NCBI GenBank assembly: GCA_050114895.1
Contig: JASFRP010000001.1
Coordinates: forward strand, 1-27,930
DNA from: Gemmatimonadota bacterium
GTDB taxonomy: Bacteria; Gemmatimonadota; Gemmatimonadetes; Longimicrobiales; Gaopeijiaceae
Reading direction: 5' to 3'
Length of the DNA stretch: 27,930 nucleotides
Shown: positions 903-5,570 of the stretch, piece by piece
How positions within the stretch are numbered: position 1 is the first letter of the stretch
How the letters are laid out: the number at the start of each line of letters is the position of its first letter
Translations under genes and position numbers: made by a program
The notes under the pieces: generated by a model
What the model was told of the DNA's origin: nothing
The model's database searches: none
What the model saw: the letters and a program-made list of their open reading frames with translations, nothing else

Positions 903-2263
903 CCACCGAGCTCCGCGTAGAACCGGGACACAGCTCGGATCCCCTTCTCGAAGTTCTCGAGGGGAATCCACTCGTTCGGGGCGTGCATGTTGGCTCCGGG
1001 AGGGGCAAACCCCATGAGAAGGACCGGCGCCTCCAGGATTTCCTGGAAGTCCACCACGATGGGGATGGATCCGCCCTCACCAGTGAGGACGGGGGGTTGT
1101 CCGAAAGCCTCCGCCAGAGCTCTGCGGGCCGCCTCGAAGAACGGCCCTGTCAGCTCCGCTTTCCAGGGCCTTCCCCCGTGCAGTTCCCGGATTCGCACCT
1201 TCACCTCGGGAGGGGCGACACGGGATACGTGGGTCTCCAGCAACTCCTTCACGCGCTCCGGCCTCTGGTTCGGCACCAGGCGGAAGCTGACCTTGGCCAT
1301 GGCACGGGCGGGAAGCACGGTCTTCGCCCCTTCTCCGACGTATCCACAGAGCAGACCGTTCACGTCGCAGGTGGGTCGGATCCAGATGCGCTCCAGGAGA
1401 CTGAATCCCTCCTCTCCGTTCAACCCCGGCGCTCCCACTTCACGCTTGAACCCCTCCACGTCGAAAGGCAGCGCCTGCAGTGCATCCCGGGTTCCCCGGT
1501 CCCACTCCAGGACGTCGTCATAGAACCCGGGGATGGAGATGCGGCCGTCGGGGTCTTTCAGGGACGCCACGATGTTCGCCAGGACGTTCCCGGGATTCAC
1601 CACGGCCCCGCCGTACGTACCCGAATGAAGATCACCACCGGGACCCTGAACGTGGATTTCGAAATACGCCAATCCTCGGAGAGAGAAGAGGAGGGAGGGG
1701 AGGCGCTGGGCGAACATGGAGGAATCGGAGATCACCACCGCATCGCAGGCGAGGCGGTCCTTGTGAGCTTGCACGAAGGGAACCAGGCTCGGGGAGCCGA
1801 TCTCCTCCTCCCCTTCCGCCAGGACGACGACATTCACAGGAAGGCGTCCTGCACCCCTCAGCTGCGCTTCCAGCGCCTTGATATGCAGAAAGAGTTGGCC
1901 TTTGTCGTCGGATGCTCCCCGAGCGAAGAGATTCCCGTCCCGGACCGTGGGCTCGAAGGCCGGAGAGTGCCACTCCTCCAGCGGCTCTGGAGGCTGAACG
2001 TCGTAGTGTCCGTAGATGAGGAGGGTGGGGGCTTCGGGGCCTGCCTCTCGCCATTCCCCCAGGACCACCGGATGTCCCGGGGTCTCCATCACCGAAGCCT
2101 CCAGGCCCGCGTCTCGTAGCCGGTCTGCCACCCAGGTGGCGGCGGCACGGACGTCCGGAGCGTGCTCCCCTCGGGCGCTGACGGAGGGGATGCGAAGGAA
2201 CTCGAAGAGCTCGGCGCGGAAACGAGAAAGCTCACCGTCGATGTAGGCCTGAACGTCTGCCAT
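899..2263 (-). CDS. M20/M25/M40 family metallopeptidase (dipeptidase, ArgE/DapE-like), 454 aa
   Basis: Metal-binding motifs [30 protein letters not shown] and C-terminal NMHAPNE. Confidence 0.92.
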
Positions 2264-2361
2264 GGGTCTTCTCCCGTGGGGTTGGGAACCGATATTCGGG
2301 ACTGGACACGGAAGCTCGGCCCGAACCGCGATCTTCCGGCTGCCTCCTCCCGGCAGAGGTC

Positions 2362-2390
2362 AATCTAGAGGCCTGTTGAAACTTTTTCAC
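2362..2390 (-). promoter_or_regulatory. Possible sigma70-type promoter for the dipeptidase gene (GTGAAA-N17-TAGATT)
   Basis: Minus strand: -35-like GTGAAA (2390-2385), 17-nt spacer, -10-like TAGATT (2367-2362), ~100 nt upstream of the ATG at 2263. Overlaps the divergent ECF-type promoter. Confidence 0.3.
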
Positions 2391-2402
2391 CCTCCTCGCG
2401 TA
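2377..2402 (+). promoter_or_regulatory. ECF sigma-type promoter TGAAAC-N16-CGTA
   Basis: TGAAAC (2377-2382), then a T-tract and a 16-nt spacer, then CGTA (2399-2402). This is an exact match to the B. subtilis sigma-W-type consensus. It is intergenic and points into the structured region. Confidence 0.6.
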
Positions 2403-2408
2403 CGGAGC

Positions 2409-2703
2409 AAAGCCGGGGAACGAGGCTACTTTCCCCGACCGGAAATATGGGTATCCGCTCCAGGCAACCATTCGTGGCCGGGGCTCGTCATACAGGATGC
2501 CGGAGGGGTGCGGGGAGTGGGATGGGTCCGGTGCTGTAATCACGCGGGCTCGTTGGCGTAAGCTAGAGAGTCAGCGACGCGGAGTTCGGCGCGTAATCCG
2601 AACAGGAGGGGCTGGTCACCTCTCCTTAACCCAACTTCCACGGGGTGCCTCCGTGGGGGACGAGAAAAGGCGGCGACCCATGCGGGTCGTCGTCTTTCTA
2701 TTT
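2409..2703 (+). ncRNA. Putative stand-alone structured ncRNA of unrecognised family (5' end ~2409 or ~2496; structured core 2543-2703)
   Basis: Consecutive hairpins: CGCG+UCGUUGGC/GUCAGCGA+CGCG (2543-2581), GUUCGG/CCGAAC (2584-2603), AGGAGGGG/CCUCUCCU (2604-2626), CUUCCACGG/CCGUGGGGG (2635-2659), then a terminator (2666-2703). G-U wobbles in four stems pair only on the + strand. No credible CDS. ECF-like promoters lie upstream. Confidence 0.6.
2666..2703 (+). terminator. Intrinsic terminator of a + strand transcript
   Basis: AAAGGCGGCGACCC-ATGC-GGGTCGTCGTCTTT followed by CTATTT. Its two G-U pairs become A-C mismatches on the - strand. Confidence 0.75.
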
Positions 2704-2803
2704 CAGGGCGGGGGAACCCTGCGCGGTGGGGTAGTGGAAAGCCGTCACTGGCCGAAAAGGGGGAGTTCACCCGGCACCGGATCGCGAGACGGGGGGCCGT
2801 CGC

Positions 2804-3082
2804 TCAGATGAGGCCTCTGATTCCCCAGCGGTAGATGCAGGTGAAGAGTGTGGCGAGGACGGCGGCTCCCGCCATTCCACCGCCGCTCAGGGCAAGCGGG
2901 TCCTCGAAAGCGAAGATGCCGACCCCCAACATCCCACCGATCACGGCAGCGAACGCACCCAGGGTCACCAGGATCGCGGTATGGCCAGGCGTGGCTTCGG
3001 GCCGCCTGATGAGGGCTTTCATGGCCAGGCCGATAAGGCTGCCCATCACGATCCAGACGCCTACTCCGATCCAGTTCTCCAT
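2804..3082 (-). CDS. GlsB/YeaQ/YmgE-like (transglycosylase-associated) small membrane protein, 92 aa
   Basis: Three Gly-rich hydrophobic segments with the family pattern WIVMGSLIG...LGAFAAVIGG...GGMAGAAVLA. Downstream of pspA on the same strand. Confidence 0.7.
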   Translation of the reverse strand: MENWIGVGVWIVMGSLIGLAMKALIRRPEATPGHTAILVTLGAFAAVIGGMLGVGIFAFEDPLALSGGGMAGAAVLATLFTCIYRWGIRGLI

Positions 3083-3191
3083 CGGATCCCGTTGAGGTTG
3101 AGGTCCTGGTGTGGAAGCGGAAGAGAATCTACCCGGTTTCCTTTGCCTTCACTAGGAGGTGGTTCCAGGCGTCGGGAGAGACGATCCCCCC

Positions 3192-3848
3192 TCAGTCCTT
3201 TCCCATCATCCTCTTCAGCTCCCGGAGCTTCGCCTCCGCCTCCTCTTCCGGTGAGAGGCCCCCGGGGGGCGGGCCCGCCCCTGGCGAGCCGAGGTCTGCC
3301 AGAAGCTCCTCCTCCGCTTCTCGCTGGTGGTCTATCCCTTCGATCTTCTCCGCCACTCGATCCAGCTGGGCAAACAGGTCATCGGCCTCGGTCATGGAGC
3401 TCCGTGCCTCCGCCCTCCCTTTGGTGGCGGTCAAAGCCTCCCGCTTCGCCTTCGCCTCCTTGAACTGAGCCATCATCTCCTTGACTTCTGTCCTCTTCAG
3501 CTCGAGCTCAGCCCGAAGGGCCAGGGCTTTTTGCTGCTGTATGGTCTTCCTCTTTTCGTGCTTCTCCGCGAACTCGGCGGCGACTCTGGCCGTCTCCTCG
3601 TCCCCAATGCGGCCGGCCATGGCCTCCCTGCGCCTGCAGGTAGCCACTTCCTTCTCCTCGAGCTCCGCCAGCTGAAGGGCCTTCTTGATCTGCTCTTCCA
3701 GGGTGTGGGCTTGAGCCTGAGCGTCCGTCAGCTCCTCCTGCATCTGGTGGAGAAGCCGATCCACGACGTCCGGGACCTCGTCCCTGTTGAGCTCGTCCTT
3801 GAAGTTGTCCACAGCCTCTTTGAATGCTTGCCGAAGGTTCTCAAACAT
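3192..3848 (-). CDS. pspA: PspA/IM30 family coiled-coil protein (bacterial ESCRT-III-like), 218 aa
   Basis: N-terminal amphipathic helix MFENLRQAF, long Ala/Glu/Lys coiled coil with AGRIGDEETARVA and AKREALTA segments, FAQLDRVAEKI, Pro/Gly linker, C-terminal EAKLRELKRMM helix. Confidence 0.85.
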   Translation of the reverse strand: MFENLRQAFKEAVDNFKDELNRDEVPDVVDRLLHQMQEELTDAQAQAHTLEEQIKKALQLAELEEKEVATCRRREAMAGRIGDEETARVAAEFAEKHEKRKTIQQQKALALRAELELKRTEVKEMMAQFKEAKAKREALTATKGRAEARSSMTEADDLFAQLDRVAEKIEGIDHQREAEEELLADLGSPGAGPPPGGLSPEEEAEAKLRELKRMMGKD

Positions 3849-4021: not shown

Positions 4022-4651
4022 TCAGTTGAGAAGTGCTTCAATCCTCTGTGCGAAGGAGCTTCTTGCACGGTGCAGCCGGCTCTTGACGGTCCCGAGGTTG
4101 ACCCCGGTGATGTCTGCGATCTCCTCGTAGCTTTTCCCTTCCAGCTCCCGGAGACGGAAGACGAGACGATGATGCTCGGGGAGCTCCTCCACCGTTTCCT
4201 CCACGATCCGTCTCAGATACCGCTTTCGGTATAGATCATCCGGCCTCATGCGGGAGTCCTCGAACTGCAACGGACGATGATCGTCGTCGAAGCTGTTCTG
4301 AAGCTTCTGGAAGAGCACCAACGGACTCCGGGAACGGTTGCGCAGCTCGTTCTTCGAGAGGTTGCTGGCGATGGTATAGACCCAGGTGGAGAATTTCTTG
4401 GAGGTGTCGAACCGATGAAGATGCCGGGTTACTCGGATGAATGCCTCCTGAACCAGGTCCTGTGCCCGATCCGGGTCTCCCGTCTTGCGAACGATGAAGT
4501 GAACGAGCCTGTCCCGATAACGGTCATAGAGGTGCTGAAATGCACCGGTGCGCCCCTCGATGTGCGCAGTCACCAACTCCTCGTCCGTGAGCTCGGCCAG
4601 CGGCCGAAGGTCCCTCAGCTGTTCCTGATCCAACAGATCCAGGTGGGCCAT
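4022..4651 (-). CDS. ECF-type RNA polymerase sigma factor (RpoE/SigW-like), 209 aa
   Basis: Region 2: AQDLVQEAFIRV, FSTWVYTIASNLSKNELR. Region 4: VFRLRELEGKSYEEIADITGVNLGTVKSRLHRAR. No region 3. Confidence 0.93.
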   Translation of the reverse strand: MAHLDLLDQEQLRDLRPLAELTDEELVTAHIEGRTGAFQHLYDRYRDRLVHFIVRKTGDPDRAQDLVQEAFIRVTRHLHRFDTSKKFSTWVYTIASNLSKNELRNRSRSPLVLFQKLQNSFDDDHRPLQFEDSRMRPDDLYRKRYLRRIVEETVEELPEHHRLVFRLRELEGKSYEEIADITGVNLGTVKSRLHRARSSFAQRIEALLN

Positions 4652-4931: not shown

Positions 4932-5570
4932 ATGGCAGGAGTGCAGGCTTCCAGAAAGCAGAGGGTTGCGGCCGTGGTGGGCCTTTCCCTTCTGGAGGTG
5001 ATCCGCATTCGCGATCTGCCCTCGGAGATTCTGGGCTCGGAGAACCCGTCCCAGACCATGCCCAGGAGGCTTGGGCTGAGCGATGCCGTGGAACAGCAGA
5101 TCCGGCGTTTCAAGGCTGAGGCCAGGAGGCGCGGGGGCATCTCCGACGACGAGGTGAGGGCACTCTTCGGTCTGGTGCTCCGCCGCCCCGATGCGCAGGA
5201 GGTCTTCTTTCAGACTGGTGAGGTGCTGGGAGGAAAGGGGGTGGGGGACCGGAGAGGTCGAAGGTGGTATCCGGAACGCATCGGCTACGCAATTGCCCGC
5301 CGACGGGTGGAGAGGCGGTTTCGAAGCTTGTTCGGCCGGTGGGTGGGAGGGTTCGCTCACGGCCCCTTCGTCATCGAAGCCAGCGGACACTTCCTGTTGG
5401 AGATGGATCCGAAGGGACACGCCTGCTCACTCCTCTCGGGTTTCGCCCAGACCATTCTCTCTCGGCACCTTTCCCGGGCCGTGAGGGTAGCCCATCCAGC
5501 GTGCCTCGGGGAAAGGCAGGAGGTCTGCCGTTGGATCGCGTCCGACGGGGATCCGCCGCACCGGGGGTGA
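4932..5570 (+). CDS. V4R-domain (BchJ/4-vinyl-reductase-like fold) hypothetical protein, 212 aa
   Basis: ATG at 4932 with GGAGG RBS (the 4650 start in the ORF track runs through the promoter region). The C-terminus HAC...G...VRVAHPACLGERQEVCRW matches the V4R pattern C...E/HxxC-x-x-G/E-x-x-x-C-x-aromatic. Confidence 0.65.
   Translation: MAGVQASRKQRVAAVVGLSLLEVIRIRDLPSEILGSENPSQTMPRRLGLSDAVEQQIRRFKAEARRRGGISDDEVRALFGLVLRRPDAQEVFFQTGEVLGGKGVGDRRGRRWYPERIGYAIARRRVERRFRSLFGRWVGGFAHGPFVIEASGHFLLEMDPKGHACSLLSGFAQTILSRHLSRAVRVAHPACLGERQEVCRWIASDGDPPHRG

Follow-up and report, generated by a model that had tools for sequence, protein, structure and literature searches.

A previously undescribed small RNA gene beside an ECF sigma factor operon in Gemmatimonadota

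The hairpin array at positions 2409-2703 of a 27,930-nt stretch of Gemmatimonadota DNA (the whole stretch that was analyzed, hereafter the window) is a real, previously undescribed noncoding RNA gene of ~200 nt (~195-205 nt) on the + strand. The small RNA (sRNA) is predicted to extend from ~2498/2512 to 2703, with the start at ~2498 deduced from its main promoter, P2. Its family core is formed by three hairpins (2584-2603, 2604-2626 and 2635-2659) followed by an intrinsic terminator (2664-2703), all of which are conserved in relatives, and RNA from the element is present in metatranscriptomic libraries.

Structure and transcription of the RNA

The original prediction, made from the sequence alone, had proposed a series of stems, and all of them were located in the sequence. 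The + strand of 2409-2703 folds with a minimum free energy (MFE) of -139.2 kcal/mol (z = -3.77; none of 200 dinucleotide shuffles was as stable), compared with z = -1.43 for the - strand against dinucleotide shuffles. Among 32 distinct homologues, 15% of the paired cells are G.U, and standard pairing is obtained for 95% of cells on the + strand versus 80% if the same columns are read on the - strand. The RNA is therefore oriented on the + strand, and both the G.U content and the fold z-scores agree with the earlier argument that G-U pairs set this orientation. The proposal that the element belongs to no known RNA family was borne out by Rfam 15, which gave no matches at gathering thresholds over the whole window and, for 2200-2900 at E ≤ 10, only two chance matches (mir-9847, 14.7 bits against a threshold of 74, and sR10, 10.2 bits against a threshold of 45). 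As expected for a stand-alone noncoding RNA, the array ends in a terminator of its own and is flanked by a divergent dipeptidase gene and a convergent next gene; this convergence holds in every syntenic locus, in agreement with the view that the element is not a riboswitch or leader of either neighbor. A small protein was considered and rejected: the window ORF at 2497-2811 crosses the terminator, and no reading frame is conserved because homologues differ by indels of 2-3 nt in the linker and spacer.

Conservation and covariation in relatives had been named as a check on the element, and sequence, structure and covariation proved to be strongly kept there. We assembled 36 homologue matches comprising 32 distinct sequences, in which the core pairs in 95.0% of cells, versus 81.3% after column shuffling and 48-58% after partners are displaced by 1-3 columns. 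Compensatory changes on both sides were found in 37 of 40 pairs, and none of 500 shuffles reached any of five covariation measures; this alignment was fitted to the covariance model, which favors the structure, and the first MAFFT/RNAalifold alignment already contained the same four helices with compensatory changes. Three of the four hairpins first proposed, together with the terminator, are thus conserved and covarying, whereas the fourth (2543-2581) is restricted to a subgroup and lies outside the core.

Hairpin 1 (2584-2603, +) has a covarying stem, in which UA is exchanged for CG at two positions in 14-15 of the 32 sequences, and a loop, CGCGUAAU, that is kept in close members and variable in distant ones. 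Hairpin 2 (2604-2626, +), with the apical loop CUGGUCA, is the hallmark of the family. All eight of its pairs have changed on both sides, while the loop reads Y-U-G-G-U-C-A and keeps its GGUC in all 32 distinct sequences; even in a diverged paralogue (L079, described below), where the inner stem has switched from GG/CC to CC/GG, the loop is unchanged. The YUGGUCA loop is the most constrained element of the RNA. A linker follows (2627-2634, +), UAACCCAA in the window and CCCCAACU in most members, which is unpaired in the consensus structure and varies in sequence and length; the single-stranded linker noted previously is therefore unpaired and C-rich in most members, but not invariant. Hairpin 3 (2635-2659, +), in which nine of ten pairs have changed on both sides, carries GGUGCCUCC in its loop and 3' arm. 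Its GCCUCC is common, not invariant, and includes CCUCC, an anti-Shine-Dalgarno-like core; the anti-SD-like arm is lost in distant members. GGCUGGUCACCUCUCCUU may resemble the 3' tail of 16S rRNA, of which the 3' end is not assembled in this metagenome-assembled genome (MAG).

The terminator (2664-2703, +) could work in both directions, being shared with the convergent gene for a 92-aa protein, whose stop codon it adjoins in two relatives (L008 and L017). As the original prediction held, a terminator is part of the element: its stem is kept, 15 of its 16 pairs covary, and it is preceded by an A-run and followed by a U-run. Its conserved G.U pairs favor the + strand. A simple terminator scan reported nothing for the window because the U-tract there is interrupted (UCUUUCUAUUU); relatives have 7-8 U after this stem. 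We also considered an H-type pseudoknot between CGCG 5' of hairpin 1 and the CGCG of loop 1, and rejected it. It shows no covariation, since both segments are invariant and palindromic in close members, and the complementarity is absent in distant members (L093, L095, L096 and L099-L102).

Upstream of the core lies a variable, G-rich 5' part (2498-2583, +), which ranges from ~10 to 100 nt among homologues and contains 37-51% G in 12 of 13 of them, the exception being L036, with 20% in a 10-nt part. It carries the lineage-specific hairpin at 2543-2581, which is found only in the subgroup with long 5' parts (the window, L015, L033, L037 and L042). The apex of this hairpin, GCGUAA, resembles loop 1, and L033 has the full CGCGUAAU there; the apex may thus be a duplicated loop motif. 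The motif GUAA(U/G)C occurs three times in window 2533-2600 (at 2535, 2559 and 2594), and a loosely conserved GG(U)UGGGA is present in the 5' part of homologues. MFE folds often pair the 5' part with the linker and the C/U-rich arm of hairpin 2. Pairing of the G-rich 5' part with the C-rich linker was rejected as a structural feature, as the MFE folds are inconsistent across homologues, and such pairing is no evidence in itself because any G-rich tract pairs with any C/U-rich tract.

The DNA upstream of the 5' part contains a further stem, CGGGGAA/UUCCCCG (2414-2437, +), that appears in both the MFE and the centroid folds and is located between the promoters P1 and P2. The stem exists as first described, but it lies outside the core and 5' of the main transcript start that RNA contigs suggest; most relatives carry an unrelated inverted repeat at its place. 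It would form a 5' stem-loop of any transcript initiated at P1.

Four metatranscriptomic runs (rhizosphere, wetland and sediment) were aligned to 2100-3100. One 213-nt contig (X15) covers 2512-2723, beginning 20 nt after the P2 -10 element and ending 20 nt past the U-tract, a second contig of 151 nt covers 2527-2675, and several contigs from relatives, with 5' parts unlike that of the window, cover 2577-2680. The start at 2512 fits P2, the -10 element of which ends at 2492. Contig depth is zero over 2100-2511 and 2724-3100, and these silent flanks act as a control that makes DNA carry-over unlikely. Across several studies, words of 2512-2705 occur in at least 16 RNA runs. Short contigs thus coincide with the element while its neighbors are uncovered, but metatranscriptome contigs have no strand and have blunted ends, so assignment of the transcript to the + strand rests on structure and promoters. 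The contigs and the covarying terminator agree on a discrete small transcript with a terminator, the exact ends of which are imprecise when taken from contigs. In the four runs, no contig reached far enough upstream to represent a P1 transcript.

ECF-type promoters and a candidate regulon

Two promoter motifs precede the RNA. The main one, P2 (2464-2492, +), reads GCAACC-N16-CGTCATA, and P1 (2377-2402, +), which reads TGAAAC-N16-CGTA and scores 28.5 bits by position weight matrix (PWM), is located 87 nt upstream of P2 in the window and ~60-100 nt upstream of it among homologues. In 14 genomes, the P2 blocks GCAACC and CGTC.TA are invariant or nearly so and are separated by a spacer of fixed length and free sequence, and the P1 motif is found at the same relative place in 12-13 of the 14, again with variable spacers. 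Divergent members have GCAACC/GAAACC-N16-CGTC 67-134 nt before the core, and two distant members have variant -10 elements (CATC and TGTC). The hallmarks of promoters recognized by ECF sigma factors are AAC at -35 and CGT at -10, and by these features P1 and P2 are recognizable as ECF-type promoters. The proposal that the RNA is ECF-induced therefore holds at the level of promoter motifs, which are conserved across genera around free spacers; beyond that level, dependence on an ECF sigma factor in vivo is what we infer from them.

A scan of the window's own genome with the P2 PWM, at a cut-off of at least 15 bits, returned 12 sites, compared with none in a reversed-sequence control, and the best copy of the promoter motif in the genome is that of the RNA itself. 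Nine of the best P2-/P1-like sites (C275:3113, C256:1354, C98:641, C525:2830, C615:1663, C113:70, C507:2731, C132:3324 and C119:2882 of assembly G000), which read TG[CA]AACC-N16-CGTC or TGAAAC-N16-CGTA, are situated 20-180 nt upstream of, and directed at, genes encoding PadR regulators (seven) or MacB/FtsX-type permeases (two). From this excess, and from the orientation of the sites at PadR and MacB genes, the motif appears to be a functional promoter type that serves a regulon. The PadR-permease modules are a candidate ECF regulon.

A candidate for the sigma factor driving P1 and P2 is encoded nearby, and it is a candidate by adjacency. The gene (4022-4651, -) encodes an RpoE/SigW/SigM-like ECF sigma factor (Pfam Sigma70_r2, r4_2 and ECF; NCBIfam TIGR02937, 115 bits) that is 85-91% identical in relatives, always at the same locus. 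Its best NCBIfam scores are to the SigW, RpoE and SigM models, all below the equivalog cut-offs. Upstream of the gene is a sigma-70-like promoter, TTGATC-N17-CATATT, at window 4761-4733 (-); across eight genomes the promoter takes the form TTGATC/TTGCCA-N17-CATATTTTAAACTCAAA, with TTGCCA-N17-CATATT shared by seven relatives. A possible autoregulatory ECF promoter at 4709-4684 was rejected, as its N15 spacer is the wrong spacing and it is not conserved in the seven relatives, and no conserved ECF-type motif was found upstream of the sigma gene in the window and these relatives. Since the neighboring ECF gene thus lacks a conserved promoter of the ECF type, and the genome contains ~12 ECF-like genes, its product is no more than a candidate for the cognate sigma factor.

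Distribution and origin of the RNA gene

The RNA gene lies in a conserved neighborhood. In order, the locus contains a gene for a chorismate-binding enzyme, an M20 dipeptidase gene (-), the RNA (+), the gene for the 92-aa protein (-), a coiled-coil protein gene (-) and the ECF sigma gene (-), and this order is kept in nearly all carriers, the most divergent included. The dipeptidase gene (899-2263, -; Pfam PF01546 and PF07687; NCBIfam dipeptidase, 545.8 bits) is divergent from the RNA, and the 92-aa membrane protein gene (2804-3082, -), the last gene of the ECF operon, is convergent with it, a layout that agrees with the one first described. The names GlsB and PspA given earlier to two products of this operon are resemblances only: the 92-aa protein is GlsB/YeaQ-like by eye and has no Pfam or NCBIfam match, and the 218-aa coiled-coil protein (3192-3848, -) has a sub-threshold match to PspA (E = 6e-4; 19.5 bits against a cut-off of 243). 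The sequence CAAT(C/G)TA(G/C) is conserved between the M20 start and P1 (window 2348-2357); read on the - strand as TAGATT/TACATT, it is likely the -10 box of the dipeptidase gene, placed back to back with P1.

A BLAST search with the intergenic region against 40 relatives gave five matches, which share window 2578-2700. When a two-loop pattern was scanned over one genome per prokaryote species, 37 loci were found; 13 of these are true homologues, all in Gemmatimonadota MAGs, and the other 24 are unrelated sequences, approximately the number expected by chance. A covariance model (R1) was run on 150 genomes sampled from the GTDB family to which the window belongs, and it detected the RNA in 31 of them, representing 27 of 81 genera. 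Among 151 genomes sampled across the phylum, R1 recovered only members of this family and weak terminator-like matches, and a second model (R2), for which 30 diverse members were used, gave no convincing match in 118 genomes from other families of the class. Within the limits of this sampling, the RNA is thus restricted to a portion of a single family of Gemmatimonadota. The weak matches outside the family (L076-L078 and L127) were rejected, since it was mainly the terminator that matched, and one further match (L103, 31.7 bits) is a false positive that has no synteny, promoter or hairpin 2 stem and was left out of R2. One genome contains the paralogue L079 (L079:1501-1628; G152 contig 35), which scores 60.7 bits with R1 and 82 bits with R2. 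This diverged second copy sits between genes for a LytS-type histidine kinase and an endonuclease/exonuclease/phosphatase-family protein, and no clear P2-type promoter was found at it.

Five members of the GTDB family (L108-L112, in G009, G102, G003, G005 and G023, respectively) have no RNA at the locus, and the covariance model found nothing there even with filters off. In these genomes the ECF sigma and coiled-coil genes are followed on the same strand by the 92-aa and M20 genes, which abut or overlap each other. The ECF sigma, coiled-coil, 92-aa and M20 genes are therefore probably, judging by this arrangement, an ancestral four-gene operon, and the RNA gene, together with its promoters and bidirectional terminator, would occupy a clade-specific spacer of ~0.3-0.55 kb that split the older operon between its 92-aa and M20 genes.

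Function and comparison with known systems

We lean, with modest confidence, toward the RNA being a trans-acting regulator of an ECF stress regulon. The arguments for this reading are an analogy to sigma-E-dependent sRNAs, the presence of conserved segments that are unpaired, and the paralogue outside the locus. An ECF sigma factor would activate transcription from P2 (plus P1), transcription would stop at the RNA's own intrinsic terminator, and the sRNA would then act in trans on other transcripts in the ECF-controlled stress regulon. As the most constrained element, the hairpin 2 loop is the likeliest point of contact with a partner, and its GGUC could engage targets by loop-to-RNA pairing; the C-rich linker and the CCUCC of hairpin 3 would perhaps pair at ribosome-binding sites. 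Its role may, by analogy, parallel that of MicA/RybB, as the original prediction suggested.

Duplex folding of the full RNA with the start regions of five neighboring genes produced only long, meaningless duplexes, and genome scans for complements of loop 1 and loop 2 gave chance-like matches, mostly inside coding sequence. In five loci (L008, L025, L031, L032 and L035), the gene divergent from the ECF sigma gene (the homologue of window 4932-5570) has a conserved C-rich leader, G(A/G)ACCAGCCCCCCC, that runs into the start codon and is complementary to 10-12 nt of the hairpin 2 5' arm and loop (GGGGCUGGU). The leader is absent from the window and was for that reason not counted as a target. 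No Hfq or ProQ gene (PF17209, PF04352) was found in the window's genome assembly, which is 78% complete, and the chaperones on which trans-acting sRNAs usually depend may therefore be missing. The genome does have a CsrA gene.

These properties bear also on an unlikely alternative, that the RNA binds protein, with the YUGGUCA loop on its stable stem titrating or delivering an RNA-binding protein when the ECF regulon is on. An invariant loop on a freely changing stem is as compatible with protein recognition as with RNA pairing, the sequence of the terminator stem is unusually conserved, and lineages with long 5' parts have an extra hairpin with a loop-1-like GCGUAA apex; that Hfq and ProQ were not found and CsrA is present points the same way. 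Each RNA has a single GGUC loop, however, which contains no GGA of the kind that CsrA needs, one member is almost without a 5' part, and no candidate protein co-occurs in the locus. A CsrA sponge in particular was rejected, as GGA in the 5' part (36 observed versus 29.1 expected from composition) is not enriched.

The history of the locus raises the question of whether the RNA acts in cis instead, such that the inserted gene uncouples or represses the dipeptidase gene, by antisense or transcription interference, when the ECF promoters fire. The abutting or overlapping 92-aa and M20 genes of the five RNA-less relatives are in keeping with this model, as are three loci (L031, L036 and L091) in which 3-22 nt separate the RNA promoter from the M20 start codon, such that any M20 leader there must overlap the RNA gene. 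We nevertheless regard it as quite improbable: an antisense role needs no conserved hairpins, covariation or invariant loop, most genomes have room for, and conserve, the M20 -10-like TAGATT/TACATT between the M20 start and P1, and in one genome a further copy occupies an unrelated locus. That the RNA senses a ligand or signal, as an orphan riboswitch-like element or ribozyme instead of a pairing regulator, is highly improbable, for although compact hairpins in which unpaired nucleotides are strongly conserved, with a terminator after them, might suggest it, the syntenic loci have no co-directional downstream gene, and the RNA has no multi-helix junction, supported pseudoknot, conserved alternative anti-terminator pairing or Rfam match.

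Taking trans regulation together with the distribution and promoter analyses, we tentatively offer a joint reading, which we hold as a possibility and do not expect to stand in every part: the RNA may be the first regulatory sRNA family of Gemmatimonadota, inserted into an ECF operon in one clade, wired by promoter type to PadR and MacB-permease genes, and acting independently of chaperones through its GGUC loop. If so, the invariant GGUC loop, as a kissing-loop or protein contact, would take the place of a linear Hfq-type seed, the RNA would serve an envelope or antimicrobial stress response as a loop-driven arm that needs no chaperone, and its insertion point would be the 92-aa/dipeptidase junction of a conserved ECF-sigma operon. 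Gemmatimonadota is widespread in soils and sediments, few of its strains are in culture, and a full-text literature search found no paper on sRNAs or RNA regulators in it. The RNA may therefore provide an entry point to ECF stress signaling and post-transcriptional control in the phylum: its promoter type links it to a definable regulon of PadR regulators and MacB/FtsX permeases, its structure is backed by covariation, evidence of its expression comes from numerous metatranscriptomes of environmental samples, and its evolutionary origin within an ECF operon is clear. For Rfam, it makes a clean new family.

The promoters resemble those of a well-studied system in another phylum. In Bacillus subtilis, sigma-W promoters have the form TGAAAC-N16-CGTA and sigma-M promoters the form TGCAAC...CGTC, as established in literature from the Helmann laboratory. 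P1 equals the sigma-W consensus letter for letter and P2 is like that of sigma-M, with the consensus being that of B. subtilis, a member of a different phylum. The neighboring sigma factor scores best against SigW, RpoE and SigM models, below their cut-offs, and in a further difference from the B. subtilis case its own gene has no such promoter that is conserved.

Among RNAs with known roles, RsaE/RoxS, CcsR and AbcR are loop-seed sRNAs with C-rich or anti-SD motifs. The Gemmatimonadota RNA is like them in having conserved C-rich or CCUCC sequence in or beside hairpin loops (hairpin 3 and the linker), but its most conserved loop, GGUC, is not C-rich and its CCUCC is not invariant. CsrB/RsmZ likewise are structured and, like this RNA, apparently abundant, and a CsrA gene is present in this genome, whereas the Gemmatimonadota RNA has neither repeated GGA loops nor GGA enrichment.

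By function, the parallel is with ECF-dependent sRNAs such as the sigma-E-dependent MicA, RybB and MicL of enterobacteria, which are also small stand-alone transcripts with an ECF-type promoter and an intrinsic terminator, and which also belong to a wider set of ECF-type promoters in the same genome. The Gemmatimonadota RNA shares no homology with them in sequence or structure, as it has no Rfam match, and it differs in length (~200 nt, compared with 70-140 nt), in having an invariant apical loop and no conserved single-stranded 5' seed, and in its tandem promoters and the lack of a detected Hfq. Sigma-E-dependent sRNAs extend beyond the enterobacteria, FoxJ of Fusobacterium nucleatum being described as one (PMC11005410). 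Thus, the Gemmatimonadota RNA constitutes a new RNA family by its sequence and structure, and ECF-dependent sRNAs, the kind of regulator to which it appears to belong, are already well known elsewhere.
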